Positions 217-37,915 of a DNA stretch of 43,809 nucleotides are shown one piece after another. The stretch is from Klebsiella phage KP34. A program made the translations under genes and the position numbers. Positions within the stretch are counted from its first letter, which is position 1; each line of letters begins with the position of its first letter. The stretch lies in sequence record NC_013649.2, one strand, 5' to 3'. The notes beneath the pieces were generated by a model, which was not told where the DNA came from, did not search any database, and worked only from the letters and a program-made list of their open reading frames with translations.

Positions 217-476
217 TGCCTTGCTTATTTTGCGCGTACATAGTGGGTCACAGTGTGTGTCCTAGTGGGCCTGCCTAGTGCGCTGTAGTGCAGCACGGTG
301 ATATCCCTAGTGCGTACTAGGCTATCCACTGGCTATCCTTAGTGCTTTACATTGTGCTGATTCTATGCTACGCTGCGCGCTCCCCACTAGGGCGCACATC
401 CACCACACCGCACTACCCGGTGCTATCCCTTTGCTACCCCTTGCTCTTACTTTCATTCGAAAGCTAATCTGAAATG

Positions 477-494
477 ATGTTACAGGAGTAGGAG
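477..494 (+). promoter_or_regulatory. Candidate phage-RNA-polymerase promoter P1 (ATGTTACAGGAGTAGGAG); left-end position analogous to T7 phiOL
   Basis: One of three identical copies of the 17-nt core ATGTTACAGGAGTAGGA (477..493, 22199..22215, 33723..33739), all on the + strand. The length and the trailing TAGGAG resemble T7/SP6-type promoters (T7: TAATACGACTCACTATAGGGAGA). Confidence 0.5.
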
Positions 495-918: not shown

Positions 919-960
919 CGATAAAAAGAGTTGACACCGCGAAGAACATAAGCTAGATTG
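919..960 (+). promoter_or_regulatory. Candidate host sigma70 early promoter Pb (GATAAAAAGAG 919-929, -35 TTGACA 930-935, 17-nt spacer, -10 TAGATT 953-958)
   Basis: Perfect -35 consensus with optimal spacing and an acceptable -10. The same GATAAAAAG upstream motif as Pa. Position matches the T7 A1-A3 early promoter cluster. Confidence 0.55.
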
Positions 961-1276
961 AATCCAAGCAGTAAGTAGTAAGCTGGTTTGCGGGGAGGCC
1001 CAGTACCTTAAATGGTACGATGACGACCAAGCCTATACAGTCAGCCAAAAAGCAGGACCGCAACGGAGCCGTAGGGCTAGAGGGCGGGGCTAACAAGCCG
1101 AACACTACCGGGGCGCTGAGACACTGCCCCGTAAAAGAATAGTGTCGAGACCTGAACCACAGGTTCCACGGTAGTGCAGTGGGTAACAAGGTTAAGACTA
1201 AGCGTCATCCGTGCTGGGGCAGCGGTGCCACCTACGGGGCAAATGGCGCTTAACATTAACTTTGAGGGAGTACACA

Positions 1277-1492
1277 ATGAAATATCGTGAGAAGTTAGCG
1301 CAACAATTCGCTGGGCTGGAGAAGTTATCCGGTTCGGAGTTGAGAAAGCGCCGGGATGCACTGAACCGCGCAGGGTATATGCGGATGAAGCAGTCCGCTG
1401 CATTCAGTACGAATGTACGTGGTAAGACCAAAACAAGGGGCGGTAGCAAGGTCCCACAAGGTTGGTACACTGCCGGACAGTTCGGACACTAA
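1277..1492 (+). CDS. Hypothetical small basic early protein (72 aa)
   Basis: The 93-aa ORF in the track starts at 1211; an internal ATG at 1277 is preceded by GAGGGAG (1265-1271). Lys/Arg-rich product; first gene after the promoters. Confidence 0.45.
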   Translation: MKYREKLAQQFAGLEKLSGSELRKRRDALNRAGYMRMKQSAAFSTNVRGKTKTRGGSKVPQGWYTAGQFGH

Positions 1493-1499
1493 TTACAGC

Positions 1500-1524
1500 C
1501 TATAGCATCCTACGGGGTGCTATG
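1500..1524 (+). promoter_or_regulatory. Conserved intergenic RNA hairpin, copy a (10-bp stem, UACG loop); candidate RNase III site or RNA stabiliser
   Basis: CTATAGCATCC-tacg-GGGTGCTATG lies immediately after the stop of gene 1277..1492. A near-identical element follows gene 2339..2512, with a compensatory A-U to G-C change in the stem. Confidence 0.5.
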
Positions 1525-1563
1525 TGAAGTAATTACCTAAACAACCAACCAACGAGGTGCGTC

Positions 1564-2139
1564 ATGACTCATTCAACTGGTAAAGTATTCAAACTCACCG
1601 CCGCTGGCAGCATCCGCAAAGCGCTGGGCGACGTAGTGGAAGCAAAGCGTAACATCACTATCAGCGCGCTGTTTCACGGTCTGGTAAGCAGCAACGTTTC
1701 CTGGGCTACGGATATGCAGCGCAGCGACGCCGCTGACTTCGATATGGTGCTGCGTACGCTGTTGCTAATCAAGTTTAACAAGGAGTCCGGCAAGTACGAA
1801 TTCAATGCTAAGAAGTGCTATGCGTCTGCTGAGAAGCTGGGCATCGAACTGGATACTATGCGTCTGGACTATAAACAAGCTGACAAGCAGGGCCGCGAAG
1901 TGATTGTAGCCAGCTTCTATAGCTCCTGTATGGCCCTGTACGCTGCCGAAGCGGAGCAGGTGAAGAATGACGCACTGGATGCCGATGCAGTGCGCTTGCA
2001 AGCGCTGGGGCGCGTTAAAAACGCCATCAAGAAGGCTAAAGAGACTGGTGTAAGCGATGCTGACCTAGTGTCTATGCTGGTATCGCAGGGCGTGGACGTA
2101 CGCGCTGTACTGGACGCAACTTTGAAGGTGGCAGCATGA
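1564..2139 (+). CDS. Hypothetical early protein (191 aa)
   Basis: ORF with SD GAGGTG 5 nt upstream of ATG 1564. No recognisable motif. Confidence 0.7.
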   Translation: MTHSTGKVFKLTAAGSIRKALGDVVEAKRNITISALFHGLVSSNVSWATDMQRSDAADFDMVLRTLLLIKFNKESGKYEFNAKKCYASAEKLGIELDTMRLDYKQADKQGREVIVASFYSSCMALYAAEAEQVKNDALDADAVRLQALGRVKNAIKKAKETGVSDADLVSMLVSQGVDVRAVLDATLKVAA

Positions 2140-2338
2140 TTTATAAAGTCCCGGTTATCAAGTGGTGGGCATTGTGCCCAGCGGCCAACGATGCCGACGC
2201 CTTCGACAGTTCCACAGATACCCGCTATAGCCCTTGGTTTTACTTGGGTTTAGGGGACAACGTATAGCGTGATTTCTCATAGGGTATTCTAGCGAGTACC
2301 CTAGAGGGCAATCATGCCACAACAAAGGAGAGTAAACT

Positions 2339-2512
2339 ATGCCATACCGTAACCGCGCCCAACGTCGTGCTGATGCTGCTGAAATGCGTAGCAAACGTAA
2401 ACCCAGCGCCGCCCAGAAGTCACTGGCGCGTCCTAGCCGCCAGAATGCCATCACTGGGGGCTTGATTAAGCTGAGCGACTTCTATTCGCGTATCGGTATC
2501 AGCGTACTTTAG
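2339..2512 (+). CDS. Hypothetical small basic protein (57 aa); missed by the ORF track (<60 aa)
   Basis: ATG 2339 is preceded by a strong SD AAAGGAGAG (2324-2332, 6-nt spacing). Translates MPYRNRAQRRADAAEMRSKRKPSAAQKSLARPSRQNAITGGLIKLSDFYSRIGISVL. Conflicts with minus-strand ORF 2158..2454, which I regard as spurious. Confidence 0.55.
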   Translation: MPYRNRAQRRADAAEMRSKRKPSAAQKSLARPSRQNAITGGLIKLSDFYSRIGISVL

Positions 2513-2520
2513 TAGCAAGC

Positions 2521-2545
2521 CTATAGCGTCCTATGGGGCGCTATG
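2521..2545 (+). promoter_or_regulatory. Conserved intergenic RNA hairpin, copy b (10-bp stem, UAUG loop)
   Basis: CTATAGCGTCC-tatg-GGGCGCTATG is 9 nt after the stop at 2512. Shares flanks AGCCTATAGC and GCTATGTGAA with copy a. Confidence 0.5.
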
Positions 2546-2573
2546 TGAATGCAACTGGCGTATGAGGTTTCAT

Positions 2574-2789
2574 ATGAAAGCAATACTGGTTTATCCGGGC
2601 CATGAACTTTATGAGGCCTGCCGAAACATGGAGCAGGACTACGAGTTCACAGTGGTTATATTAACTGGGGACCATTTTACCGACACCGTGCTTGAGTATA
2701 TTGATACTCACACCGAAATGGCTGCCCGCACTGTGCTGGACGCCGTGAATCTTGGCATTATCAACGACTGGAGACAACTATATGGTTAA
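2574..2789 (+). CDS. Hypothetical early protein (71 aa)
   Basis: The track ORF starts at ATG 2562. GAGG (2564-2567) gives a proper SD for the in-frame ATG at 2574 instead. Confidence 0.5.
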   Translation: MKAILVYPGHELYEACRNMEQDYEFTVVILTGDHFTDTVLEYIDTHTEMAARTVLDAVNLGIINDWRQLYG

Positions 2790-3045
2790 TGTATTCAACA
2801 TCATTGTGACCAGCGCTATGCTGGTGCTGGGCAACGACGTAAACAACCCGGTGCCCTACTGCACAGTGCAGTTGCAGCAACCGGCGGAGCAGGAACCGCA
2901 GCCGCGCCCTGAGTATGACCTCTTTGAGGATCCCGAGGGTGGTTGCAAAGAGCTAGGTGCGCGTATTCTTGCGGCGGTGCAGGAGCAGTACCCGAACGCC
3001 GCTGTAACGCTCACTGTAGACGGTAAGAGCAACAACGATATTTGA
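2782..3045 (+). CDS. Hypothetical early protein (87 aa), mildly acidic
   Basis: The track ORF 2752..3045 overlaps the previous gene. The in-frame ATG at 2782 (MVNVFNII...) with GGAGAC upstream is more likely. Confidence 0.5.
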   Translation: MVNVFNIIVTSAMLVLGNDVNNPVPYCTVQLQQPAEQEPQPRPEYDLFEDPEGGCKELGARILAAVQEQYPNAAVTLTVDGKSNNDI

Positions 3046-3053
3046 GGTAGGGT

Positions 3054-3233
3054 ATGCACGGAAAGAATCCTGAAACGCTGCTTATGCGTGGGCAGCAACC
3101 AACAATCGAAGGGCTGGCGCGCGAGTACAACGCGAAGGCAGCACTGCGCCAGCACTACGAGCGGCAAGCGCAGCGCCTGGGTATGACTCTGCGCGGCTAC
3201 TGTCTGCGCTTTAACGTGCGGGGTGTGGTATGA
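3054..3233 (+). CDS. Hypothetical small protein (59 aa); missed by the ORF track
   Basis: SD GAGGTAGGG (3043-3051) precedes ATG 3054. The stop overlaps the next start in an ATGA junction at 3230-3233. Translates MHGKNPETLLMRGQQPTIEGLAREYNAKAALRQHYERQAQRLGMTLRGYCLRFNVRGVV. Confidence 0.6.
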   Translation: MHGKNPETLLMRGQQPTIEGLAREYNAKAALRQHYERQAQRLGMTLRGYCLRFNVRGVV

Positions 3234-3439
3234 AGTACGACGTGTATAAAAATAAGCGCAGTGGTATATACTACTGCGTTAACCTTATGGGTGGTATCAA
3301 TGAGTGGCACCTGTTACTACCAGATGAGCCGCCCTACACGCTGGAAAGAAGCACGTGGCGCGCCGGTGATGTAATCACCCGACCGGATGTATTCCAGCTC
3401 ATAGCCCGCAACGTGGTATTCAAGGACAGCGTATGCTGA
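3230..3439 (+). CDS. Hypothetical early protein (69 aa)
   Basis: ORF; its start overlaps the stop of the upstream gene (ATGA). Confidence 0.55.
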   Translation: MKYDVYKNKRSGIYYCVNLMGGINEWHLLLPDEPPYTLERSTWRAGDVITRPDVFQLIARNVVFKDSVC

Positions 3440-3777
3440 CAGTAGACGAAACAGCGCTGCTGTGCTGGCGTCTGCTGGAAACGCAGGGCAAGTGCGGCTG
3501 CACTTGGGAAACATTCAAAGAGGTTCCTAATGAACTCAAGAAAATTGTACCTGTTGAGCGGAGAAACATTAGAATCCGCAAGCAGGATTCAACGGTGGTG
3601 CTCACAACCTACCGAGAGTATACAGAATCTGCCGCGCGGCAGTTGCAAGAGCACATTCAGTTCGATGTGGTTGCAGCACTACTACGGCACGGATATCGTG
3701 GAGCCTATACAAGATTTAGGGCGGCTGTGCGCTCGTATTATAAGCAAAGACAGCTCGCTGCGTGGTATGCACGCTGA
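3433..3777 (+). CDS. Hypothetical early protein (114 aa)
   Basis: ORF with SD AAGGA 7 nt upstream. ATGCTGA start/stop overlap with the previous gene. Confidence 0.6.
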   Translation: MLTVDETALLCWRLLETQGKCGCTWETFKEVPNELKKIVPVERRNIRIRKQDSTVVLTTYREYTESAARQLQEHIQFDVVAALLRHGYRGAYTRFRAAVRSYYKQRQLAAWYAR

Positions 3778-3817
3778 ACTCTCAATGCACGATGAAATAC
3801 AATTAACCCAGGAGCAA

Positions 3818-5497
3818 ATGAAAATGCAAGAGACTAACACAGCACCTATCGAATGGAAAGTAGTATTACCGGAAGGTGCAAACGCACTGCCAATGAAAGA
3901 GTCAATGTATTCCAGTGGTGATTACTGGACCCCGTTCCAGGGCTTGCAAATGCAGGGCGCTGACCATCCCCACACTGAGGGCCCGCTGCAGGCGCTTATG
4001 GGTCTACGCACTGTCAGCATGCTAACTCCGGGCTTAGAGGTAACTATAGGCGAGATGCTGCACCCAGAGTATCACGCAGTAATGACGATTCGAGGCCCGT
4101 TGCAAAAGGTGGACCTGTATAACAGCGGAACTTTCTACGAACTCTTTGCCCCGGCGCGAATCACCATCGACAACAAGTTCTGGGAACGCCGCCGCGACTT
4201 CTATGAGGGCGATGATGTAGTGGTTGAGCGCGTGGTTGCGTGCGTGGAAGAGTTCACCGGTTACAAGGTGCACAAGCAGGCCGTGCAGTTATTCGAGCGC
4301 ATTATGCTTGCGCCAGAGCAAGCACGGCGCCGAGAGTATACTGGATACGATTACGGCAGTCACATCCGTGACATGCACGCCGCGGCGCTGCTCATGAAGT
4401 TGCACGGTTTTGTGGTATCTCGCTTCGCCGTACCCTTGGGCTTTGGTTTCCGCAACGGAGAGCCCATCGTGATGCTGGGGCAGCTGCGTATGCACAAGGA
4501 CTTCGCCGCGATTACTGAGTACCGCTGCGTAGAGATGCGCGTAGGTAAGTGGCTCGCTAACTACTACGGAAATGGTGTGGACTTCCGCGATGCTATCGAA
4601 GACCTCAAAGCTATGAACGTAGAGCCTACAACGTACCTGTGCAAGACCGAGCAGGAATGGTACGACGCCTACGAGAATGGCCCGGGTAGCTGCATGAGCG
4701 GGTACTCCTTTGAGCACAGCCCTGTGCGGACGTATGCTACCACCAGCCACGGGCTGCCAGATAATGGGCTGCGCCTGTTCATACAGTACACCGGGGAACT
4801 GTTCGGGGATGACTTTGAAGTGCAGGCACGGGCAATCGTTAACACAGAAACTAACGAGTATGTTCGTGCTTATGGCAACGCTGCGGATGCAATCCTGCGC
4901 GGACATGGGTACACCAGAAACACTGAGTGTCTCGAAGGGGTAATGCTGGCGCGTATACCACACCCGCAACACACCGGTGCGGTGCTGATGCCGTACCTCG
5001 ATAGCACCCAGTGCGGAGTATATGAACATGGGGAGGACGCATTTGTAATTCGTGACGCTTACGAGTACGAGGCGCAAGAAGCCGATGGATACATCTACGT
5101 CGGTACAGAATCTGCTCGGTGCTGCTGCTGTGAGGAGCGATACTCCGTAGATTACATGCAGGAAACCGCAGATGGTGATATGGTGTGCGATGGCTGTATT
5201 GAAGAGGAAGAGTTTGTACATGCAGTTGGACGTCGGGGTCTGTACAACCGATGGAACTGTACCTGGTCTGATTACCACGGTGCCTATGTATACGACAGTG
5301 ACCTCGCGCACTGTGCGGTAGAAGGTGTAGTGCACGACCAAGCAGAACTGGTGTATGCGCAGGGATTTGAGGTGCTTATTGAGCACGCAGAAGAACACCC
5401 AGTGCACGGGTTAATTCTCACTGAGCATGCAGCTGATTGCTTGGGAGAGAAGTACCTGGGCAACGATGACGAAGAAGAAGTAGAGGAGGCAGCTTAA
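3818..5497 (+). CDS. Large early protein of unknown function (559 aa) with a cysteine cluster (CCCCEERY...CDGC) and an acidic C-terminus
   Basis: Long ORF (track: 3530..5497). I prefer the in-frame ATG at 3818 (MKMQ...), preceded by AGGAGC (3810-3815), which avoids overlap with 3433..3777. No family recognised by eye. Cys-rich segment CCCCEERYSVDYMQETADGDMVCDGC; tail DDEEEVEEAA. Confidence 0.75.
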   Translation: MKMQETNTAPIEWKVVLPEGANALPMKESMYSSGDYWTPFQGLQMQGADHPHTEGPLQALMGLRTVSMLTPGLEVTIGEMLHPEYHAVMTIRGPLQKVDLYNSGTFYELFAPARITIDNKFWERRRDFYEGDDVVVERVVACVEEFTGYKVHKQAVQLFERIMLAPEQARRREYTGYDYGSHIRDMHAAALLMKLHGFVVSRFAVPLGFGFRNGEPIVMLGQLRMHKDFAAITEYRCVEMRVGKWLANYYGNGVDFRDAIEDLKAMNVEPTTYLCKTEQEWYDAYENGPGSCMSGYSFEHSPVRTYATTSHGLPDNGLRLFIQYTGELFGDDFEVQARAIVNTETNEYVRAYGNAADAILRGHGYTRNTECLEGVMLARIPHPQHTGAVLMPYLDSTQCGVYEHGEDAFVIRDAYEYEAQEADGYIYVGTESARCCCCEERYSVDYMQETADGDMVCDGCIEEEEFVHAVGRRGLYNRWNCTWSDYHGAYVYDSDLAHCAVEGVVHDQAELVYAQGFEVLIEHAEEHPVHGLILTEHAADCLGEKYLGNDDEEEVEEAA

Positions 5498-6543
5498 TGT
5501 TCTTGAATCCGCACGGGATTGATATGCAGCTGCTATTGCAGATACTGCAAACGCACCGGCCTAGCTGGGCAAGCACTAAGTGGTTTGAGCCGCTGCTTAT
5601 GCAAGCGCTGGGTAGTGGTATGCACTACGTAAAGGACAAGCACGGGAACTACTTCGTGCTGGTGGGGGACTCAGAGCAAAGCGACGTAGCGTTTACGTCT
5701 CATCTCGATACGGTGGCCCGCCCAACCAGCGCTGCGCCGGACGTCGGCTGCACTAACAAGGGCGTGCTGTTCGTAAAGAATCCGCAACAAGCTGACTGCT
5801 TGGGGGCGGACTGCGGTGCCGGTATCTACCTGATGCTAGAGATGCTGCGGCGAGGTGTGCATGGACGCTACTGCTTCTTCGTGGATGAGGAGGTTGGTTG
5901 CGAGGGCAGCGCTGCATCAGTCAAGGATGACACTGGGTTTTGGACTGGGGTCAAGGCGATGATTAGCTTTGACCGACGCGGCGACGGAATCATAACGCAT
6001 CAACGGTATATGCGCTGCTGCTCTGACACCTTTGCCAAGACCCTAGCAGAGCGCCTGGGACGCACGGAGCAGCACTTGCAGAAGGGGGTATATACTGACT
6101 CAGCTGAGTTCGTTGGTATCATTCCTGAGTGCACCAACGTCGGTGTAGGGTACATGCACGAGCACACCCCGGATGAGGTACTGGACCTGAACATCCTGGG
6201 GCAAGTGCTTGAGCGGGTACTGCAAGACGGTACGTTCTCGCACCTTCCGATTGAGCGGGACCCGAAGGTAGTAGAGCCAGACCAATGGCTCTCTGCATCG
6301 ACACTCAGTTTACGGCAGCCGTGGGACATGCCCCCGGCCGAGGACCCGCAGTTACTGGCTGCGTTCCGGGAAGTGTCGCAGCTTTCTAAACAACAATTGA
6401 TTAGCTGGGTGCAGGAGAATCCAGAGAAGGCGGCGGAGTACATAATGGTGTTCTCCGATTACGGCTTTAAAGAAGAGCTGATTGAACTAGGCACCCGAGT
6501 CGTAGAAGACTGGGGCGGATACGATAATATTGTGGAGGGTTGA
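5497..6543 (+). CDS. M20-family (ArgE/DapE/CPG2-like) metallo-amidohydrolase/peptidase homologue (348 aa)
   Basis: VAFTSHLDTV matches M20 signature 1 ([LIV]-x-[LIVMF]-x-[GSA]-H-x-D-[TV]-[STAV]). ...GADCGAGIYLM...YCFFVDEEVG matches the signature-2 tail ([DNGM]-E-E-x-[GSTNE]). A C-terminal His lies in YMHEHTPDE. SD GAGGAGG 8 nt upstream; start overlaps the stop of the 559-aa gene (TAATG). Confidence 0.7.
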   Translation: MFLNPHGIDMQLLLQILQTHRPSWASTKWFEPLLMQALGSGMHYVKDKHGNYFVLVGDSEQSDVAFTSHLDTVARPTSAAPDVGCTNKGVLFVKNPQQADCLGADCGAGIYLMLEMLRRGVHGRYCFFVDEEVGCEGSAASVKDDTGFWTGVKAMISFDRRGDGIITHQRYMRCCSDTFAKTLAERLGRTEQHLQKGVYTDSAEFVGIIPECTNVGVGYMHEHTPDEVLDLNILGQVLERVLQDGTFSHLPIERDPKVVEPDQWLSASTLSLRQPWDMPPAEDPQLLAAFREVSQLSKQQLISWVQENPEKAAEYIMVFSDYGFKEELIELGTRVVEDWGGYDNIVEG

Positions 6544-6545
6544 TT

Positions 6546-7013
6546 ATGTCTAAGTTTAAAGTTGGCGATAAGGTTGTACGTACAGTGCGCGGCCGTGAGG
6601 ATGAAGACTTTCTGTGTATGCTCGGAGAAGCTGCCTACTATACAGTTACGTCTGTGTCCTTTGGAGGTTGCTGGTTGCAGGTAAACGGCGTGTCTAAAGT
6701 GTACGACGAACGTCCGTGGGCCGCTACCAATTTCGAGCGGTACCAAGAACCGAAGGATGAGCTGCCGCCAGTCCAGTCTAGTGTATCCTATCTAAACACT
6801 AAACGAGACCCTGGAAACGACCAACGGCTGGTCTTGGAAAGAGACAGTGAGACTGATGAAGGCCTACTCTACATCGGGATAATCCCTAGAAAGGGCAGCA
6901 CCCGGGCAGAGCAAGAGATTGGTATTAATATGAGCCCCGACGCTGCACTGCAGTTAGCACACGACCTGCGCCGTATGGCTATGGAAATCAAACGTAAGGG
7001 GAAAGCACAATGA
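6546..7013 (+). CDS. Hypothetical protein (155 aa)
   Basis: SD GGAGGG (6532-6537) precedes ATG 6546. The track start 6540 is an upstream TTG. Confidence 0.65.
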   Translation: MSKFKVGDKVVRTVRGREDEDFLCMLGEAAYYTVTSVSFGGCWLQVNGVSKVYDERPWAATNFERYQEPKDELPPVQSSVSYLNTKRDPGNDQRLVLERDSETDEGLLYIGIIPRKGSTRAEQEIGINMSPDAALQLAHDLRRMAMEIKRKGKAQ

Positions 7014-7207
7014 GTAGAATTATTAAGTACGAAGCGCCTAAGCGTGTTGTAGTCGGCATTCCATTCACCTGGGGATTGTGTAATGCTTGGGCTATAAAGG
7101 TGGAAAATGGGGACATCTACTATTTATCTAATGGGTCAAAGGTATTAGAGTCAGAAGAAGAGATACTCCCAGACATCATTTATGCCAATCGCATAGAGAT
7201 TAAGTAA
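7010..7207 (+). CDS. Hypothetical protein (65 aa)
   Basis: SD AAGGGGAAAG upstream; ATGA overlap with the previous stop. Confidence 0.55.
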   Translation: MSRIIKYEAPKRVVVGIPFTWGLCNAWAIKVENGDIYYLSNGSKVLESEEEILPDIIYANRIEIK

Positions 7208-7992
7208 TGGACCAGCCCTGGCTTAGGGCGTGCAAGCGCCTGGCCGTGGGGCAGAGGGCACGCTTTCGGTGCTGCGGCAGGGACGCCGCCGGGGTGCTCT
7301 ACAATAACCCGGATGCCTGGGAATACTATTGCCACCGCTGTAAACAGGTGGGCAAGGAGCGCAAGCAGTACCAGCGCATACAGTTACAGGAAGAGCCGAG
7401 GGTGCAGCCCTCTGCACCTGCAGATGCAATTTGCATTAGCCAAGCGCCTGCGGAAACGCAGAGTTTTATTTACGGATTCCTGACCACAAAGGGAATCATG
7501 CCTGAAATGGTGGAGGATGCAGAATGGAGCAAAGAGAAACAGCGGATAATCTTCCGTGTCGGAAGTGCTGCTCTGGGCCGTGCAGTGCATGCCCGACAGC
7601 AACCGAAGTGGGTAATGTACGGCCAACCAATACCATACGCTGTCGCGGCACCTGCCGTAGCACCGGCTGTAGCTGCGGCCGCACCTCTAAAGGTCGTGCT
7701 CACCGAGGACTATCTATCAGCCCGGAAGATACAGCACGCAGTTACGAGCTACAGTGCGTTGAACGTGCAGGCTATAGCTATGCTGGGTACACGCTTGCCT
7801 ACGCCGCTGAGGGCTTGGCTGATTCAGAATCACCCGGAAGTGGTTATGATGCTGGACAATGACCCTGCGGGGCACGCCGGGGTAGCAGCAGCACGTCGAG
7901 CATTGCGCCCGTTCATGCAGTGTCGTGAGCATTACTTCGCTGCGGACCCTAAGGATGCAGAAATCAAAGAGATTCTGGAGGCTTTACAATGA
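7207..7992 (+). CDS. DNA primase (N-terminal Cys zinc-binding region plus TOPRIM domain), 261 aa
   Basis: N-terminus FRCCGRD...YYCHRCK (zinc ribbon). C-terminal VVLTEDYLSARKI...VVMMLDNDPAGHAG is a TOPRIM-type E...DxD signature. It precedes the helicase, as in phiKMV-like phages with separate primase and helicase. Confidence 0.8.
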   Translation: MDQPWLRACKRLAVGQRARFRCCGRDAAGVLYNNPDAWEYYCHRCKQVGKERKQYQRIQLQEEPRVQPSAPADAICISQAPAETQSFIYGFLTTKGIMPEMVEDAEWSKEKQRIIFRVGSAALGRAVHARQQPKWVMYGQPIPYAVAAPAVAPAVAAAAPLKVVLTEDYLSARKIQHAVTSYSALNVQAIAMLGTRLPTPLRAWLIQNHPEVVMMLDNDPAGHAGVAAARRALRPFMQCREHYFAADPKDAEIKEILEALQ

Positions 7993-8183
7993 GTATGGGT
8001 ATCTGGGTTTTAATCATGGCGATTAATGGCAGTGCGGTTAGCGACACAGACTTCGCTGCGCTAACCACTCAAGAGTTCACAACGGAGGCCGCCTGCAACA
8101 AGGCTGCCAAGGCGTTCGAAGAGAAGTTTGACACATTCAGGGTGTATACCGCTAAAGCAATCTGCGTTCCGAAGGAGGTTTAA
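7989..8183 (+). CDS. Hypothetical small protein (64 aa) with a hydrophobic N-terminus
   Basis: SD GGAGG before ATG 7989; MSMGIWVLIMAINGSAV... Confidence 0.5.
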   Translation: MSMGIWVLIMAINGSAVSDTDFAALTTQEFTTEAACNKAAKAFEEKFDTFRVYTAKAICVPKEV

Positions 8184-9464
8184 TTGGACCTAATAGTAGT
8201 TAAAGCGATGTGCACGCAGAAGGTGTGGAACCGACTGCGTGAACAGATACCCAAGAGCATGCTAGCGCCGGACACCTCGAACCTGCTGGACTGGGTGGGG
8301 CTGTATTGGAACACGTACCCGGAGCACCAGGAGGTGCAGTGGGACGCGATGCAGAGCATGCTCAATCTCCGGGCGGGGCACCTATCCCGGGAAGAGCGGG
8401 TAATCATGGACGAGCTTATGCGGGGAGTACAAGCCGTACCGCAGGATTCTGTGGTGGGGATTGTCCAGACCCTGAATGAGCTGGCCTACAGCGGGGAGGT
8501 AGCAGCGCTGACGCAGCGCTACCAAGACGGAGAGGAGATTGATTACCTGCTGGAAATGAAGCACCTACAGCGCAAGTACGGTGACGGTGCTGCTGTTCAT
8601 GATTCGCTACTGGAATGGGAGAGCGGAAGTGTTGACGAGATACTTGCCGCGACTGACGAGAGCGGCGGTCTTAAACTGGGCGTGTTCGAGCAACTCTCTA
8701 GCAACATCCGGGGCCTACGAGGCGGGGACTGCATCGCAGTGGCTGCCCCTGTGGACTCTGGTAAAACTAGTCTGCTTGCTGCTATTGCTGTGGACTTTGC
8801 TGAGCAGATGCAGCAGCAACCGGAAGTGTACGGGGACCGCCCGATTCTCTGGCTGGTTAACGAGGGTCCGGCGACGCGTACAGTGCCGAGGGTATATCAA
8901 GCGGCGCTGCACTGGACTTTGGCTGAGATTAAGGACCGGCACAGTAAGCAAGAGTTCGTGCCAGCCTACCTCAAGAAAGTAGGTAGGGCTGACCGGATTC
9001 GTGTTAAGGCTGCGCACTCCTTGACGATGGCGCAGATATCCACGCTCATGGAGGAGATGCGCCCTGCGGTAATCATCATCGACATGGTGGCGAACATCCG
9101 TGGCGGCACTATGGAGAGTGAGCACCAGAACCTCGAGGCGAAATGGCAGGAGCTGCGTATCCTTGGGTGCGAGAACGACTGCGCTATTGTAGGGACTATG
9201 CAGCTTTCACTCGAAGGTTACAACATGCTGTTCCCACCGCTCACCGCTATGAAGCAGAGCAAGATTGGTGTACAGGGTGCCCTGGACTTGGCGATTATGA
9301 TGGGGTGCTTGGACAGAAACGAGCAGCCGCACATGCAAAACGTCCGCGGTATCAGTACTCCGAAGAACAAGATGGCACTATCTGGCAAAGAATCGCTACT
9401 GCAATTCGAGGTGGCATTCGACCCAGGTAGGTGCCGCTTTAACGAAGGGCAGATTAACAAGTGA
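8184..9464 (+). CDS. Replicative DNA helicase (DnaB/T7 gp4 helicase-domain-like), 426 aa; probable TTG start
   Basis: Walker A AAPVDSGKTSLL and a RecA-like core. The TTG at 8184 has a perfect SD AAGGAGG (8172-8178, 5-nt spacing) and follows the upstream stop directly. Confidence 0.85.
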   Translation: MDLIVVKAMCTQKVWNRLREQIPKSMLAPDTSNLLDWVGLYWNTYPEHQEVQWDAMQSMLNLRAGHLSREERVIMDELMRGVQAVPQDSVVGIVQTLNELAYSGEVAALTQRYQDGEEIDYLLEMKHLQRKYGDGAAVHDSLLEWESGSVDEILAATDESGGLKLGVFEQLSSNIRGLRGGDCIAVAAPVDSGKTSLLAAIAVDFAEQMQQQPEVYGDRPILWLVNEGPATRTVPRVYQAALHWTLAEIKDRHSKQEFVPAYLKKVGRADRIRVKAAHSLTMAQISTLMEEMRPAVIIIDMVANIRGGTMESEHQNLEAKWQELRILGCENDCAIVGTMQLSLEGYNMLFPPLTAMKQSKIGVQGALDLAIMMGCLDRNEQPHMQNVRGISTPKNKMALSGKESLLQFEVAFDPGRCRFNEGQINK

Positions 9465-9470
9465 CTTCCC

Positions 9471-9506
9471 TAGCGCCTTCCTAGAGGGCGCTATGTAGGT
9501 ACATAG
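9471..9506 (+). promoter_or_regulatory. Related hairpin element, copy c (TAGCGCC/GGCGCTA stem plus adjacent CTATGT/ACATAG stem) after the helicase gene
   Basis: Shares TCCTA..GGGCGCTATGT with copy b. Lies 7 nt after the helicase stop. Confidence 0.4.
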
Positions 9507-9514
9507 GGGGCTTC

Positions 9515-12860: not shown

Positions 12861-12917
12861 TGATAGGTGGACCCTTGGGTGGTGTAGGGGGTTAGGGTAA
12901 CACATAAATACGCTGGG

Positions 12918-12952
12918 GTCAACTAAATAATTAAATAAAATTATTTGTTGAC
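12918..12952. repeat. AT-rich near-perfect palindrome GTCAAC-T-AAATAATT-AAATAA-AATTATTT-GTTGAC within a 140-bp AT-rich island; candidate origin or operator
   Basis: Seen directly. The only strongly AT-rich non-coding stretch in the genome (about 12880-13020). It lies between the polymerase module and the next genes. Confidence 0.5.
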
Positions 12953-13020
12953 TCTGGCTTGATTCTGTGATTCCACGAGAATTAATGTGATACGAGTAGG
13001 AACAACATAAGAGAGTTACG

Positions 13021-15883: not shown

Positions 15884-15904
15884 GGCCCCTCCTAGGGGCC
15901 TTAT
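15884..15904 (+). terminator. Intrinsic terminator-like hairpin GGCCCCT-CC-AGGGGCC followed by TTAT
   Basis: Perfect 7-bp GC-rich palindrome 24 nt after the stop of the 274-aa gene. Confidence 0.5.
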
Positions 15905-18362: not shown

Positions 18363-18522
18363 GTTATACTACGAGGGGAAACACGATGAACTTGAAACTA
18401 TTCTGGACGCGCTGCGTGAACGAGCACCCAAGACACATCGAAGAACGGTTGAGCATTTGGATTCTCTCATTCACGACAATGCTATGCTGGATGTAGTGGG
18501 GGAGATTGAGCTATGGCCCTAA
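18319..18522 (+). CDS. Hypothetical protein (67 aa); start uncertain
   Basis: The track ORF 18250..18522 overlaps the exonuclease heavily. The internal ATG at 18319 (AGGAG upstream) gives MAKMSAKEMGLRAIELYYEGKHDELETILDALRERAPK... Confidence 0.4.
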   Translation: MAKMSAKEMGLRAIELYYEGKHDELETILDALRERAPKTHRRTVEHLDSLIHDNAMLDVVGEIELWP

Positions 18523-18935
18523 GAAAGATTACACGGGCACAGATTCGCTCCGTGGCGATTAAGCTTGCCAAAGACCAGGGAGGTATCTGCCTCCTTTGTG
18601 GCAAACCTTTGGACTTCACAATCAAGGGGGTAACTGGTGATTCTGTTGTCGTTGACCACGATCATATTACTGGGCGTATTCGGGGCGCTCTTCATCGCTC
18701 GTGCAATGGAGGGGAAGGCAAAGTGGCATCTGCCGCTGGGCGCTGGATTGTTGGTAGTATGCAATCTTCTAGGGCTATTGCTGAATCTCTACGTAGGGTC
18801 GCCGATTACTTAGACAGCGAACCTACGGATATGCTATACTATACGCACAAGACGCCGGAAGAATTGGCACAGGCACAGAAGCTCAAGGCCCGCAAGGCCC
18901 GGGCACGACGCAAAGCACGGGAGACTATTAAATGA
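18513..18935 (+). CDS. Endonuclease VII-type Holliday-junction resolvase (140 aa)
   Basis: CLLCGKPLD...VVDHDHITGRIRGALHRSCN matches the T4 endonuclease VII (Endonuclease_7) signature CxxC ... DHDH ... TGxxRGxLxxxCN. Confidence 0.85.
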   Translation: MALRKITRAQIRSVAIKLAKDQGGICLLCGKPLDFTIKGVTGDSVVVDHDHITGRIRGALHRSCNGGEGKVASAAGRWIVGSMQSSRAIAESLRRVADYLDSEPTDMLYYTHKTPEELAQAQKLKARKARARRKARETIK

Positions 18936-19150: not shown

Positions 19151-19613
19151 AACTGGTGCACCGTTTAGGCGGGGAGATACCCGCGAGGATGGGTACATCT
19201 TTATGACCTACCAGAAGACTGTAGTAAAATCTGACGGTACGTTTAAAGAGGTGTGGCTGCGCCCAGACCGGGCAGACGCGGCTAAGAGGAAGACCTCAGC
19301 TGCGGGTGTAGTTTGTCAGCGCAACAGACGCCTAAAACACGGCGCCATAATTAATAGGTACAAGATGTGGAAAGGGTGCGCAGTATGCGGGTATAATAAG
19401 CACCCAAGTGCTTTAGACCTGGACCACCGGGACAGAAGCACGAAGTCGTTTGATATAAGCTCTAGTGTCGCCACCAAAGCGTGGGATGTTATTGCTGCGG
19501 AGATAAGGAAGTGTGATGTACTTTGCGCAAACTGTCATAGGATTAAAACGTATGAGGAGCAGGAATGGAAAGTCCTAGCGCCTGGTGCCGCAAGCAGTGG
19601 GAAGCAGCAGTAG
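19131..19613 (+). CDS. HNH endonuclease (160 aa; start uncertain, TTG at 19131 or a downstream ATG)
   Basis: CAVCGYNKHPSALDLDHRDRSTK...CANCHRIKT (HNH with two CxxC pairs). Confidence 0.75.
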   Translation: MKRINPKTGAPFRRGDTREDGYIFMTYQKTVVKSDGTFKEVWLRPDRADAAKRKTSAAGVVCQRNRRLKHGAIINRYKMWKGCAVCGYNKHPSALDLDHRDRSTKSFDISSSVATKAWDVIAAEIRKCDVLCANCHRIKTYEEQEWKVLAPGAASSGKQQ

Positions 19614-22191: not shown

Positions 22192-22198
22192 AAATTTA

Positions 22199-22215
22199 AT
22201 GTTACAGGAGTAGGA
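22199..22215 (+). promoter_or_regulatory. Candidate phage-RNAP promoter P2 (TAATGTTACAGGAGTAGGA), immediately upstream of the ATG at 22216
   Basis: Identical core to P1 and P3. Lies in the 24-nt gap after the RNAP gene. The AGGAG inside the motif doubles as the SD for the next gene. Confidence 0.55.
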
Positions 22216-26622: not shown

Positions 26623-26660
26623 GCCCCTGGTGCCTTCGGGTGCCAGGGGCTTTTTTTTTT
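26623..26660 (+). terminator. Strong rho-independent terminator (12-bp stem, UUCG loop, T10 tract)
   Basis: GCCCCTGGTGCC-ttcg-GGTGCCAGGGGC followed by tttttttttt, directly after the capsid operon. This is the position of T7 Tphi. Confidence 0.85.
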
Positions 26661-32930: not shown

Positions 32931-32948
32931 GAGGCCCTTCGGGGCCTC
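32931..32948 (+). terminator. Stable hairpin GAGGCCC-ttcg-GGGCCTC (UUCG tetraloop) after the 894-aa gene; partial terminator or RNA stabiliser
   Basis: Perfect 7-bp stem 3 nt after the stop codon. The downstream sequence is only moderately T-rich (CCCTTATCAAAATTCTTTT). Confidence 0.4.
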
Positions 32949-32977
32949 CCCTTATCAAAATTCTTTTAGGAGATATT

Positions 32978-35900
32978 ATGGCTCAGTTTCTGAACCAAGA
33001 ACCGAATCCACAGGAAAAGGATTCTGCTAAGGGCGCAACACTTAAACCTGCGCCTGAGCGCATAGATTGGAACGATGCCGGGGACAACGGTCTGAACGCA
33101 CTGGAGCGTGCCTCATTACTGGCACAGGCCAAGACACCAGCTACTACAACCTCAGAGAGCTTTGCGTCGGGTATGGGCAACAGCATCATCGCCGCAGCTA
33201 TCCGCAAGGCCTCTGCTCCGGCATTTGACCGAGACCCGAACTTTAATGCTAAGCAGACCCTGAGTAGCGATACTCGGGCTAAGCTGTATGCTCCGAATCA
33301 GGAAGAGATTGAGTACCTGCACGACTCCGTGTCGGTAGAAGATTACAACTACCGCATGCAGCAGATGCTTGAGCAGCGTGACCGTGACCGCTTAATGGCT
33401 GACAACACAGTAGCCGGGTTCGCTGGTATGTTGGTAGGCGACTCCCCGTTCATCCTGGCCCCGATGTCTGCCGCCGGTATTGCTGGCCGCGCGGGCTTAG
33501 CTGCACGTACCGCTATCCGCGCTGCTGACGTAGGCTCAGCATTCTATGCACAGGACCAACTAGGTCAGTCCGCTGCGGTAACTGCACTGATAGCAGGGGT
33601 AGCTGGGTTGGACCAGCTCTGGGATATGTCTAGGGCTGCTAAAGCTGCCGCCAAGGCTCGTACTGGGCGTGAGCCTATGTTCGACCCGGAAGCGCCTACA
33701 ACTCGTACAGCGAGGGACGCTAATGTTACAGGAGTAGGAGAGGGAGAGGAAATTCTCACTAAGACACTGGATGAAAGCATCCAAGTATCGAGAAACAATA
33801 CCGCCTCCGTGAACATGAAAGCACAGCACGTAGTTCAGTTCTTGAAGAATTCTGAACACTTAACTGCAGGTCAGAAGGCTATTCTGGACACGCTGGGTGA
33901 TGCTGTAAACGACATTGATTTTAAACTAGTAGCAGGCTCCGCAAACCGCAGCCGCTACACTTATGCACAACAAGATTTAGCTAAGCGGGGAGAGATATCC
34001 CTGCGCGCACCTAAGCAAGCTAACGGCAGCACCTGGACTACAGTCGGTGATGCGCTGCGCGCTATGGATGCAGACACAAGCAGGGTAGCTGTGCACGAAC
34101 TGATTCATGCCGCCACTGCGCGCGCCATTGACAGTAACCCAGAGATTGCTAAGCGCCTGGAGGAAGTACGTGCTGTTATTGCAGCAGACTCCACCCTGAC
34201 ACCGCGTATGCGGTATTACGCAAGTAATGTGCATGAGATGCTGGCAGGTTTAGGCGACAGCCCTGAGTGGGTTGAGCACCTGGTACGTACGCAGTCTCCC
34301 ACCGGTAAGAGCATGCTCCGCCAACTGGGTGAGTACATCATGAACGCTCTGGGCATCAAGGCCAAAGGCTCTGCCTTGGAGGATGTCCTGGATGCATACG
34401 AGGACGCCGTTAAGTGGACCGCTAAGGATTATGCAGACCAAGCCCAGAGCTTCCGTAGCGAAGCCTTCCAGGACCTGGTGGATAGCACCACCCTCAACGA
34501 GGCTAAGCGCGCCCAGGCCATGCTGGATGGTGCCAAGAAGAAGCTATCCACTATGTTTGCCCTGTACGATAACATCGCTCAAGGCAACGAAGACTTGGCT
34601 AAACTGCTAGTGTCGGACGCGTCCGCCGTAGGTGGCCGACGCCCGTCAGTGGTAGACTACAAGCGTAACCTCACTTTGGAGATGGATGCTCGCGCCAGCG
34701 TAGTGGAGGACGCTATCCTGGGCGCGTTGAAGGATAAGGGTATAGGCGTGCTCTCACGCTTCTTCCACCGTAGTAATTTCCGCGCTGAGCGGGCTGCACT
34801 GGAAGACCGCCTGAGTAAGTACCTGGATGCTGCCTACAGCGCTGACGTAAACGGTCGCGCCGTTCCGGTGCCGGATGCAGAGATTGCTCCGCTGGTTGAT
34901 GCCTACCGTCGCTCTGGCTGGGCTAGCAAGTGGCACGAGCATATGCTCAATGCCGGTCTAGTAGATGATGGTGCGTTGGTTAAATCCGACTACTACTTCC
35001 CGCGTCAGTACAGCTACGACAAGATGCGTCAAGGTATCGCACAGGGTAACACTCTGGACGACTACCGCGCACTGTTCCGGTTCGCCCTGCGGGACGTGTA
35101 CCCTAGCATGGAGTCAGAGGTGGTGCAGCGTGTTGCCAAGGAGATGGTTGACGGTATCTACAACGGCCGTGCCGGACAGTCTGGCCCTATGTGGAAGCAG
35201 CTGATTAACGGTATGGGCAACGATGAGGTCGTTATGGCTATGCGTAGCGCTGGTGTAGATGAGTCTGCAATCCAGAGCTTTCTGGCTGGTAATGTACGCG
35301 AATCCGGCAGCACATCCCCTGCGCGGAACCTGCGTCAGCGTACTCGGTTCAACATGGACAAAGAGTATCTGGTGAATGGTAAGAGCATGCGCATGCAGGA
35401 CCTGATGGATACTGACGTAGCCAAGGTTATGCACGGGTATACTAACCGTATGTCTGGGCGTGTAGGTATGGCCTATGCAGGCGTACAGGACCTGGGACAG
35501 CTCTCTAAGATGATTGATGAGTCTAAGCACGCACTGGCGGATTCCGCTAAGTGGGAGAAGACCGTCAACGACACCATCGACTTTATCCTGGGTGGGGCAC
35601 CTGCTGACTCGGGTCAGCTTCCGGGCTTGCTGCGCGCAGCTGGGAACATGGCGAACGCCACGATGCTCAAGAACTCCGGGCTGTATCAGCTGACTGATAC
35701 TGCTTTGGCTATGAAGGAGTTCGGTATGGCTAGAGTTCTGCGTAGTATGCGTGACCAGCCTTGGTTCAAGGAAGGTGTCGTAGCTATCAAGACTCCTGAT
35801 ATGGCTGCCCGTCTAGACACCGTGCTGCGGGGTAATATACAGAAGGAGATGCGCTTCCGCTGGCTGAATACGTACGCTGACGATAACCTGGACCTGACCC

Positions 35901-36677: not shown

Positions 36678-37601
36678 ATGGCATTCAGCTGGCAAGAACA
36701 AATCAAGCCAGCTGGTACCCAGGATATCCAGTGTGATATTGAGTATTTGGACAAGTCCTATATTCATGTATATCTCGACGGCGTTGAAACCACTGGATAC
36801 ACCTGGACCAGCGCTACTAATATCAGGTTAAATACAGCCTTGGCAGCAAGCACTACTGTGCTACTAATCCGTAAGACAGAGCGAGAGTATCTGTACATTG
36901 AATTCGCCAGTGGTTCTCCGTTCATTGAGGTAAACGTAGACTCCCAAAACACACAGTTCTTACATCTGGCGCAAGAACTGGTGGAGGGCCGTGCTATCCC
37001 CGGATTCTATGGCACTATTAGTATGAACGGGTATCGCATAACTGACTTAGCCAACCCAATTAACTCCCAGGATGCTGCTACTAAGTCGTACGTCGACGCT
37101 GCTGACGCCTTACTGGGGCAGCGTATTGACGTAGAGGCTGCTACGCGGAAGGCAGCTGACGATGCTTTGAGTATGCGTACGTCCGCTCTGGAGAACACCT
37201 TTATAAGCGGAGTGGAGACAGTAAGTTACCCTTGGAGTACAGTGTTAGCCGAGGCTACAGATGAAGTAACTCCCGGCTTGGCCTTCACTAAGGCTGTAGT
37301 GGAGATTAATGGAGTTGGACAGATTCGTGGTTACAGTTTCGAGATTGTAGACAACACCATACTGTTTGCCAAGACCCTCCCCGCCGGAACGGTTGTGGCT
37401 GCCCGACTGGGGGCCGACGTAACCGCAGGGGACGGCTTCGCTACACAAGCGTCTGTGGACTATTTGGCGGACTCTCTGGGGGATTTGGCATATCTTGATA
37501 CAGCCGAAGCTGTGCCTGATGCAACAGGTGCCGGAGATGTAGTGGCTAAACTAAATGCTCTGCTGGCATCTCTGCGTACCAGCGGGGTACTGGCTTCATA
37601 A
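36678..37601 (+). CDS. Tail fibre / adaptor protein with T7 gp17-like N-terminal anchor domain (307 aa)
   Basis: N-terminus MAFSWQEQIKPAGTQDIQCDIEYLDKSYIHVYLDGVETTGYTWTS...IRLNTA...LIRKTE follows the pattern of the T7 gp17 N-terminal tail-attachment domain. Short C-terminal part. Confidence 0.75.
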   Translation: MAFSWQEQIKPAGTQDIQCDIEYLDKSYIHVYLDGVETTGYTWTSATNIRLNTALAASTTVLLIRKTEREYLYIEFASGSPFIEVNVDSQNTQFLHLAQELVEGRAIPGFYGTISMNGYRITDLANPINSQDAATKSYVDAADALLGQRIDVEAATRKAADDALSMRTSALENTFISGVETVSYPWSTVLAEATDEVTPGLAFTKAVVEINGVGQIRGYSFEIVDNTILFAKTLPAGTVVAARLGADVTAGDGFATQASVDYLADSLGDLAYLDTAEAVPDATGAGDVVAKLNALLASLRTSGVLAS

Positions 37602-37612
37602 TAGGAGAAAAT

Positions 37613-37915
37613 ATGGCAGGGGCGGCTAAACGTAGTCGCCTCTCGGAGCTGCACCGCATGTTCACTGAGGCCTTGATTGAAGAAATCAAGCAGTCTAAGG
37701 AAGATGAGGTGCCACTCCCCGCCGCGGATAAATCGGTTATCGCTAAGTTCTTGAAGGACAATGACATCACCGCGGATGCAGATTCCGAGGAGATGCAGGA
37801 CCTTCGTGACGAGTTCGATGACGAGCTAGCGGCGCGTAGAGAGGCGCGTAAGAAAGAGATTTTAAACAAGATTAGTGGTTCAGACTCTGAGGACTTACTA
37901 GAAGGAATTGTATAA
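37613..37915 (+). CDS. Terminase small subunit, T7 gp18-like (100 aa)
   Basis: Small acidic protein immediately upstream of the large terminase; SD AGGAGAAAA. Confidence 0.7.
   Translation: MAGAAKRSRLSELHRMFTEALIEEIKQSKEDEVPLPAADKSVIAKFLKDNDITADADSEEMQDLRDEFDDELAARREARKKEILNKISGSDSEDLLEGIV

Follow-up and report, generated by a model that had tools for sequence, protein, structure and literature searches.

Two-part hairpins between early genes of Klebsiella phage KP34 as probable T7-type processing signals for host RNase III

The intercistronic sites at which host RNase III processes the early mRNAs of phages T7 and T3 are the closest described counterparts of the elements reported here. We analysed the whole genome of Klebsiella phage KP34 (NC_013649.2; 43,809 nucleotides (nt), referred to as the window), in which all genes lie on the plus strand, and describe four intergenic hairpins, H1 to H4, in its early and replication region (Table 1). 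Judging from sequence and predicted structure, we put the probability that H1 to H4 are T7-type intercistronic processing signals for host RNase III at about 75%. A likeness to the RNase III sites that separate the T7 early mRNAs had been proposed in the original prediction, which was made from the letters of the window; the architecture of the hairpins, the published substrate determinants, the ranking of the hairpins in searches with two models of such sites and the covariation in relatives all support it.

For T7 we used site coordinates that we take to be those of Dunn and Studier; when folded, seven of the ten mark a two-part hairpin and fall exactly 3 nt beyond its upper stem. The T7 sites compared here (R0.3, R0.5, R1, R1.1, R1.3, R4.7 and R18.5) give a consensus in which a lower stem of 9 base pairs (bp) is joined through a 4x5 internal loop to an upper stem of 10 bp, capped by a loop of 3-5 nt; 11 of the pairs covary. 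The 0.7 kinase of T7 stimulates RNase III; no homologue of this kinase is known in KP34. The T3 record AJ318471 carries curated stem_loop features, labelled as RNase III recognition sites, for R0.3, R0.5, R1, R1.1 and R1.3. These are 40-54 nt long and have the same dot-bracket shape, and R0.5 and R1 start on the upstream stop codon or immediately behind it. The T7 records NC_001604 and V01146 list no RNase III features.

Sequence rules for such sites were worked out with the minimal substrate uR1.1, for which a helix of at least 11 bp from the cut site to the tetraloop is required (Pertzev & Nicholson 2006, PMC1540722). In brief, the distal box (db) consists of a U-A and a U.G pair just below the pair that closes the loop, and every db substitution tested in uR1.1 weakened binding. 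In the proximal box (pb), pb1 is G-C, pb2 is A-U or U-A, with G-C or C-G blocking binding, and pb3 is A-U. Position pb4 is A-U or U-A, with G-C blocking catalysis, and native R1.1 has a U.C pair there. No particular tetraloop sequence is required. Internal loops confine cleavage to one strand, leaving a protective 3' hairpin.

Two of the KP34 hairpins, H1 and H3, contain a motif that has been published before. Using MEME, Eriksson et al. (2015, PMC4411677) identified a Kp34likevirus motif with the consensus AGCCTATAGCGTCCTACGGGGCGCTATGTGAA, located it at 1487..1538 and 2508..2559 of KP34 and called it a putative phage promoter; strand nicks, as in the phiKMV-like phage phikF77, were offered as an alternative. 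Lu et al. (2019, PMC6834552) pointed out that the motif is the sole sequence of more than 20 nt present twice in the genome, and obtained no transcript from a polymerase chain reaction fragment of the motif region with purified KP34 RNA polymerase in vitro. The true promoters in that study have the sequence T(A/G)ATGTTACAGGAGTA, in addition to a weak promoter inside the polymerase gene. We located this sequence at 475-490, 22197-22212 and 33721-33736; it is unrelated to the hairpin motif. The motif of Eriksson et al. is identical to H1 and H3 in sequence and coordinates, whereas we read it at the level of RNA processing; the hairpin, its lower stem and its covariation are discussed in neither of the two papers. 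Our literature search found the motif in no paper besides these.

The near-identical 32-nt elements are located at 1497-1528 and 2518-2549. Both sequences quoted in the original prediction are present in the genome, with coordinates that were one base off. A degenerate 30-nt pattern matches the genome at exactly these two sites, with an expectation of 0.00 from 100 shuffles. Each element folds into a 10-bp stem with a tetraloop, with a minimum free energy of -20.0 kcal/mol for H1 (z = -4.9) and -19.1 kcal/mol for H3 (z = -3.3), and none of 200 shuffles was as stable in either case; the stem and 4-nt loop proposed for each copy are thus borne out by RNA folding. The two elements differ at three positions, namely one loop base and the two members of a mirrored pair, which is A-U in H1 (1507/1518) and G-C in H3 (2528/2539), the compensatory change that had been claimed from the sequence. 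Two U.G wobbles are conserved in each upper stem, which ties the fold to the plus strand: the minus strands fold at -13.4 and -14.4 kcal/mol, approximately 5-7 kcal/mol worse than the plus strands.

The full element is a two-part hairpin of 46-50 nt, composed of a lower stem of variable sequence, a symmetric 4x4 internal loop and the upper stem. The lower stems of H1 and H3 are 7-9 bp long and unrelated in sequence (UAAUUAC/GUAAUUA in H1 vs UAGUAGCA/UGCAACUA in H3). In both hairpins the stop codon of the upstream gene lies within the 5' arm of the lower stem. From the end of the stop codon to the motif there are 4 nt in H1 (TAA 1490-1492) and 5 nt in H3 (TAG 2510-2512), in agreement with the spacing of less than 10 nt that had been predicted.

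Within the phage collection, the records closest to KP34, itself a member of the genus Drulisvirus, are further genomes of this genus, with 84-92% identity. For a wider sample we obtained 39 loci from IMG/VR by means of the neighbouring 191-amino acid protein, so that the sampling was independent of the motif; each locus holds 1-3 motif copies. The covariation alignment comprises 62 distinct copies and is free of gaps. Standard pairs occupy 93.6% of its pair cells, as compared to 25-44% when the partners are slid by 1-3 columns. Compensatory, both-sided changes were found at 11 of the 19 pairs, and the covariation score was reached by none of 500 shuffles. Aligning relatives, which might have made the covariation disappear, thus made it grow. 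The two U.G wobbles are kept in 60-61 of the 62 copies.

The additional copies bring new lower stems, including GGUUAAU/AUUAACC, UAAUGGUA/UACCGUUA and UAACAGUA/UACUGUUA. There are at least six unrelated lower-stem sequences, and all of them are complementary. In the upper stem a U-A pair is replaced by C-G in two loci (L010 and L021), with a one-sided intermediate in L016, and the top C-G pair is replaced by U-A in L020, with C.A intermediates in other loci. Placement is conserved as well: among 99 distinct contexts, 89 have a distance of 3-7 nt between the end of the stop codon and the CC of the core, and the next start codon follows 25-43 nt downstream, with the ribosome-binding site outside the hairpin.

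An independent scan of IMG/VR used the motif pattern with no constraint on the 12 central bases. Of the 29 distinct 12-mers found at the centre, 22 are fully paired, with 15 stem-top combinations (shuffled mean 7.0, maximum 14); two non-pairing matches are evidently due to chance. Pattern matches in MW202497 (L046), L059 and L101 were treated as chance, as they do not fold and the one in L046 is intragenic.

These observations bear on the view that the repeat acts at the DNA level, as a promoter for the phage RNA polymerase, a strand-specific nick site, a palindromic operator, or a site of recombination or replication. Such a view would account for the inverted-repeat form, for the singular duplication noted by Lu et al., and for copies that act as recombination substrates or cassette borders, as in the hybrids without intervening genes described below. 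We reject the identity with a phage promoter on the basis of the published in vitro experiment (PMC6834552), in which the region fragment gave no transcript and the true promoters proved unrelated in sequence. An operator does not fit the two asymmetries between the arms, which are T/C differences that give U.G pairs on the sense strand only and are nearly always kept, nor lower stems that covary without conservation of sequence. Nicks would leave both the covariation and the resemblance to T7 unexplained. Taken together, we find a DNA-level function very improbable.

H2 and H4 differ in sequence from H1 and H3. A stem scan of the whole genome found eight perfect stems of at least ten pairs on the plus strand. 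Four of these, at 1501-1524, 2280-2303, 2522-2545 and 9471-9493, lie in intergenic gaps of the early and replication region and have a 10-bp stem and a 3-4-nt loop; they are the upper stems of H1 to H4, respectively. The gaps that hold them are 1493-1563, 2268-2338, 2513-2561 and 9465-9514, and the counterpart gaps in phage KpV41 are unannotated. H2, which was absent from the original prediction, begins at the last base of the TAG stop codon 2265-2267. It is of two-part build with a sequence of its own (UAGGGUAUUC-uagc-GAGUACCCUA), and its lower pairs extend the upper stem to a near-continuous helix of approximately 22 bp with two bulges.

H4 follows the helicase gene, whose TGA stop codon (9462-9464) sits inside the lower stem. 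In 22 relatives H4 is constant except for the loop, and it therefore provides no covariation evidence of its own. The region 9471-9506 had been described as a third, degenerate copy of the motif. It does form a real hairpin of the same structural class, found by the class model described below with an E value of 0.037, but it is not a degenerate copy, since the model of the motif family is silent there at E values up to 10. As H4 is missed by the family model and found by the class model, we consider it a separate member of the same structural class.

The KP34 hairpins resemble the T7 and T3 sites in several respects. Both are intercistronic, lie on the sense strand in the early and DNA-metabolism regions and often start from a stop codon, and both occur as several paralogous copies per genome with conserved cores. 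Both are two-part hairpins of 46-54 nt with an upper stem of approximately 10 bp and a loop of 3-5 nt, a U.G at pair 8 and an A-U at pair 2 of the upper stem, and, below this stem, a C.U mismatch, one Watson-Crick pair and another mismatch. An interrupted helix of about two turns is found in all four hairpins, with 7+4+10 positions in H1, 8-9+4+10 in H3, approximately 6+3+10 in H4 and the approximately 22 pairs plus two bulges of H2. The two groups differ in the core, which is CC-UAUAGCGUCC...GGGCGCUAUG-UGAA in H1 and H3 vs CUC-AAGGUC...GGCCUU-UAUGAU in T7 and T3, in the internal loop, which is 4x4 in H1 and H3 vs 4x5 in T7, and in the pairs at db1 (C-G) and pb1 (U-A) of H1 and H3. They also differ in their scores with a model of T7 sites, 13-24 bits in KP34 vs 41-58 bits in T3, and cleavage of the KP34 hairpins is a prediction.

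Much of the uR1.1 rule set is present in the KP34 hairpins. The 10-bp upper stem and the pb4 position make up an 11-position helix in all four, and all four have the U.G pair of the distal box (db2) at pair 8 and A-U at pb2. A mismatch occupies pb4 in each of them, which in H1, H3 and H4 is C.U as in native R1.1. The antideterminants, G-C at pb2 or pb4, occur in none. H2 and H4 further share with uR1.1 a U-A at db1 (C-G, U-A, U.G from the loop) and a G-C at pb1, whereas H1 and H3 have C-G at db1 (C-G, C-G, U.G) and U-A at pb1. A C-G above the U.G is also found in T7 R1 and R0.3, where it is the loop-closing pair 9. Position pb3 is U-A or U.G in H1 to H4 (U.G in H1 and H3), not A-U, and the loops are UACG, UAUG, UAGC and CUA. 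By the uR1.1 rules, H2 and H4 appear near-canonical, and H1 and H3 would be sub-optimal but plausible substrates with a distal box like that of T7 R1 and R0.3.

We built three covariance models, a T7-only model from the seven T7 sites, a family model from the 62 motif copies and a class model (models R1, R2 and R3). As a positive control, the T7-only model found the five curated T3 sites, all of them where the record places them, with 41-58 bits. The whole 43.8-kilobase KP34 genome was then scanned on both strands without filters. H2 is the best match in the genome (24.1 bits, E 0.0018) and H3 ranks second (17.1 bits, E 0.11), followed by the antisense strand of H2 and, at rank 4, by H1 (13.0 bits, E 1.2); the best unrelated match has 11 bits. 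The top three on the plus strand are H2, H3 and H1. Applied to post-gene hairpins of phages smaasur, PhiM1, BF25/12, PP16 and ACG-C91, the T7-only model gave E values of 1e-5 to 0.09, and of 1e-5 to 1e-3 in the early region of smaasur.

The class model was made from 25 matches of the T7-only model in T7, T3 and these five phages, and includes zero Drulisvirus sequences. It is based on a model-guided alignment (A5); a MAFFT alignment of 26 diverse sites (A4) was left unused, as the 3' arm of the H1/H3 type stood two columns off register. The best plus-strand matches of the class model in KP34 are at 2267-2317, 2510-2557, 9459-9504 and 1500-1527. H2 is again the best in the genome (36.9 bits, E 3.3e-8), H3 has an E value of 7.3e-6, and H4 is third on the plus strand with 17.4 bits and an E value of 0.037. 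H1 follows with an E value of 0.13, which alone is not significant, and the next plus-strand match has an E value of 3.6.

With the family model, H1 scores 74.1 bits (E 1.7e-20) and H3 70.4 bits (E 2.5e-19). The original prediction had suggested a search for further degenerate copies with such a model; across the whole genome it yielded none beyond the two known. Family-model matches at 36684, 38828 and 40407, with approximately 10 bits, are noise, and partial word matches at 36127 and 38797 were not confirmed by this model. It gave zero matches in the T7 regions that were searched, and in an Rfam scan of the whole genome, judged by the gathering scores, 0 families matched.

The same results can be held against hairpins that work independently of RNase III, either as structured intercistronic spacers or, where RNase E or some other nuclease has cut, as barriers to 3' exonucleases. 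Stable hairpins directly behind stop codons are what such roles would call for, and it fits with them that the optimal db1 and pb1 pairs are missing in H1 and H3 and that the lower stem can be lost in natural hybrid copies. However, a plain barrier needs no lower stem, no upper stem fixed at 10 bp, no U.G at pair 8 and no loop of C.U, Watson-Crick pair and mismatch shared with T7, and models of T7 and T3 sites select exactly these hairpins. We consider roles of this kind unlikely. It should be noted that a protective 3' hairpin, listed in the original prediction as an alternative, is not a rival of processing by RNase III, as it is the expected product when this enzyme cleaves a single strand at the internal loop (PMC1540722).

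An attenuator had been listed as well, and a terminator or attenuator for the host or phage RNA polymerase would agree with stable post-gene hairpins in a polycistronic region. A U tract follows none of the four hairpins, whose 3' flanks are UGAAGUAAUU, GAGGGCAAUC, UGAAUGCAAC and UGUAGGUACA, so this explanation is unsupported. Consensus scans for sigma-70 promoters and for terminators found nothing at the hairpins, and the terminator that is recognised in the genome, at 26623-26660, differs from them in having a GC-rich stem followed by T10. Of all the explanations discussed here we regard termination as the least probable.

A search with the 32-mer found 273 phage records, which include phages of Pectobacterium (31), Escherichia (20), Dickeya, Cronobacter, Enterobacter and Kosakonia. 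In PhiM1, PP16, BF25/12, smaasur (Bonnellvirus) and Indie the element is found in a sense-strand gap behind an early gene. Escherichia phage smaasur has one copy of the 32-nt motif and hairpins of this build in many early intergenic gaps; one of these hairpins, ACAGGCCAUCugcgGGUGGCCUGAA, is one base from the upper stem of T7 R1. The IMG/VR scan with the unconstrained centre also revealed a hairpin of the form CC-UAUAGC...GCUAUG-UGA in the SP6-like Vectrevirus ACG-C91 (L114 2802-2830), where the RNA polymerase gene lies downstream of the sense-strand gap (2797-2859) that holds it, and in the 77.5-kilobase Kuravirus phiEco32 (L115, approximately 1847-1875), in the sense-strand gap between phi32_91 and phi32_90. 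The stem tops in phiEco32 and the Vectrevirus covary (GCCUUC-uucg-GAGGGC and GCCUAC-cuga-GUGGGC). Altogether, this hairpin is found in at least five podophage lineages: Drulisvirus, Bonnellvirus, Corkvirinae, SP6-like Vectrevirus and phiEco32-like Kuravirus.

PhiEco32 is not known to have a single-subunit RNA polymerase. The element is thus common to phages with very different transcription strategies, which indicates a host factor, and its spread is better accounted for by a shared enterobacterial enzyme than by a phage-specific factor. A sequence-specific RNA-binding protein of phage or host could also recognise the 32-nt core as a translational operator or a signal of the antitermination type, whether or not RNase III is involved. 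The core is near-invariant among paralogues and across no fewer than five phage lineages, in contrast to its flanks and loop; this exceeds the needs of the structure and argues for such a protein. Both gene sets and transcription strategies differ widely among the phiEco32, SP6-like and KP34-like carriers, making a shared phage protein unlikely, and the most conserved part, the bottom of the upper stem together with the loop, is the region where contact with RNase III is expected. The T7 and T3 sites are also strongly conserved among themselves, and the hairpin does not include the ribosome-binding site. We hold recognition by such a protein to be improbable.

The hairpins border variable cassettes of small genes. 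Compared to KpV41 (L048 2450-2512), where the copy-2 hairpin stands directly behind a 43-amino acid gene, KP34 has an extra module made up of H2 and an open reading frame (ORF) of 57 amino acids (2339-2512). In some relatives (L001, L026 and L030) an additional module brings a third copy of the motif. Hybrid single copies, with the 5' flank of copy 1, one core and the 3' flank of copy 2, are found at approximately 218 in L087, approximately 1255 in L096 (minus strand) and approximately 9143 in L058. The contigs carrying them are without homologues of the genes at 1564-2512. Such hybrids either arose when recombination between the repeats deleted the genes in between, or preserve the arrangement that preceded insertion of the cassette. 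We tentatively suggest, as a possibility that we think rather doubtful, that the CC-UAUAGC...GCUAUG-UGA hairpin is the border of a horizontally exchanged early-gene cassette and has a second role as a homology patch for gene gain and loss, or as a site for a further host factor.

Several observations weigh against H1 to H4 being RNase III sites. Among the T7 sites, the coordinate that we took for R3.8 (11203) folded less clearly and those for R6.5 (18852) and R13 (27281) were without the expected hairpin, and all three were excluded. With the T7-only model, H3 and H1 are individually not significant, and H4 was not found by this model in the whole-genome scan. H1 and H3 depart from the optimal minimal-substrate rules at db1 (C-G and not U-A), pb1 (U-A and not G-C) and pb3 (U.G). 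In the hybrid copies the arms of the lower stem are mismatched; RNAfold gives a different, interrupted lower pairing in two of them and essentially none in L058, so the standard lower stem is not indispensable. The 32-nt core is conserved across genera far beyond what the structure or the known RNase III rules require. Our literature search found no transcript-end mapping for any Drulisvirus. A search for RNase III in KP34-like, phiKMV-like, SP6-like or phiEco32 phages returned nothing relevant. This conservation, together with the sub-optimal pairs at db1 and pb1 in H1 and H3, would accommodate an additional function.

Based on the analogy with T7, we suggest the following course of processing by RNase III. 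A rightward polycistronic early RNA would start at the sigma-70-like promoter, at the promoter of the KP34 RNA polymerase, or at both (Table 1). The hairpins would fold behind the stop codons of the ORFs ending at 1492, 2267, 2512 and 9464, each as a quasi-continuous helix of approximately 21-22 bp, with a 7-9-bp lower stem, an internal loop of C.U / C-G / G.A / A.A, a 10-bp upper stem and a tetraloop. RNase III would bind at two places: the distal box, formed by pair 8 (U.G) together with its upper neighbour, and the proximal box, at the A/U-rich bottom of the upper stem. The internal loop would restrict the cut to the 3' strand, approximately 3 nt past the upper stem. As the T7 coordinates that we used lie 3 nt past the upper stem, cuts in KP34 are predicted by analogy after approximately 1527 (H1), 2306 (H2), 2548 (H3) and 9496 (H4); H2, which is nearly fully paired, might be cut on both strands. 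The upstream message would then end in a stable hairpin and be shielded from 3' exonucleases, and the downstream message would gain a 5' end 25-36 nt before its start codon.

Among the conserved non-coding motifs of the KP34-like Klebsiella phages this one is the most conspicuous, and RNase III processing would provide it with a concrete function that can be tested. The motif was published as a promoter, used in training sets for promoter prediction and then shown not to be one. The motif itself (PMC4411677) and the T7-type class of sites were already known, and the hairpins of KP34-like and other enterobacterial podophages appear best filed as sites of this class. If so, processing of early mRNA by host RNase III would not be peculiar to T7 and T3; it would be common to KP34-like, Pectobacterium/Dickeya, Bonnellvirus, SP6-like and phiEco32-like phages of Enterobacterales. 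There would also be a second natural solution for the sequence of the proximal box and cleavage loop of an RNase III substrate. For the engineering of therapeutic phages, it would mean that the hairpins should be retained as insulators or stabilisers of early genes when cassettes are moved. For specialists the result is unsurprising but clarifying.

Table 1. Hairpins and promoters of the KP34 early and replication region, with T7 R1.1 for comparison of the pairs.
Feature	Position	Strand	Parts and context	Pairs, from the loop downward	Basis
H1 (copy 1)	1490..1535	+	lower stem 1490-1496/1529-1535, containing TAA stop 1490-1492; internal loop AGCC 1497-1500 / UGAA 1525-1528; upper stem 1501-1510/1515-1524; loop UACG 1511-1514	CG CG UG AU CG GC AU UA AU UG / CU CG GA	fold, family model, class model, covariation
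H2 (second sequence type)	2267..2317	+	upper stem 2280-2289/2294-2303; loop UAGC	CG UA UG AU UA GC GC GC AU UA	fold and models
H3 (copy 2)	2509..2558	+	lower stem 2509-2517/2550-2558, containing TAG stop 2510-2512; internal loop AGCC 2518-2521 / UGAA 2546-2549; upper stem 2522-2531/2536-2545; loop UAUG		fold, family model, T7-only model, class model
H4 (third element of the original prediction)	9461..9504	+	after helicase gene; upper stem 9471-9480/9484-9493; loop CUA; internal loop C.U / C-G / C.U; lower stem ACUU/AGGU plus GU/AC	CG UA UG CG CG GC CG GC AU UA / CU CG CU	
T7 R1.1				CG UA UG AU CG UG GC GC AU AU / CU UA CU	
Weak fifth candidate	1187..1264	+	long irregular hairpin 5' of the first early ORF, placed like T7/T3 R0.3; after a predicted host promoter		
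KP34 RNA polymerase strong promoter	475..490	+	upstream of early region		experimentally validated (PMC6834552)
Sigma-70-like promoter	931..959	+	10/12 consensus matches		same coordinates in PMC4411677 Table 3

The weak fifth candidate is not established; the fold of its region has -50.3 kcal/mol (z -3.2), and the class model gives it 11 bits (E 3.6). The gene following H3 likely starts at ATG 2574 and not at the first in-frame ATG (2562), as suggested by the GAGG at 2565-2568 and by the annotation of KpV41, where the spacing from motif to start is 25 nt. In T7, the T7-only model finds a site at 18507-18569 (L043 7508-7570), between promoter phi6.5 and gene 6.5, with 24 bits; this is probably the real R6.5, and the coordinate 18852 wrong.

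Other intergenic hairpins of the window, at 15884-15900, 19156-19196, 26623-26650, 32931-32949, 37618-37643 and 43486-43516, are GC-rich and simple, not two-part. One of them has a UUCG loop, and another is a 13-bp hairpin just past the last gene. An AT-rich hairpin at 12911-12958 lies in a 160-nt gap after the DNA polymerase region. This hairpin and those at 15884-15900, 32931-32949, 37618-37643 and 43486-43516 may be terminators or origin-like elements. Identical model matches at 93-174 and 43686-43767, offset by 43,593 bases, reflect the direct terminal repeat of the linear genome, of approximately 216 bp.

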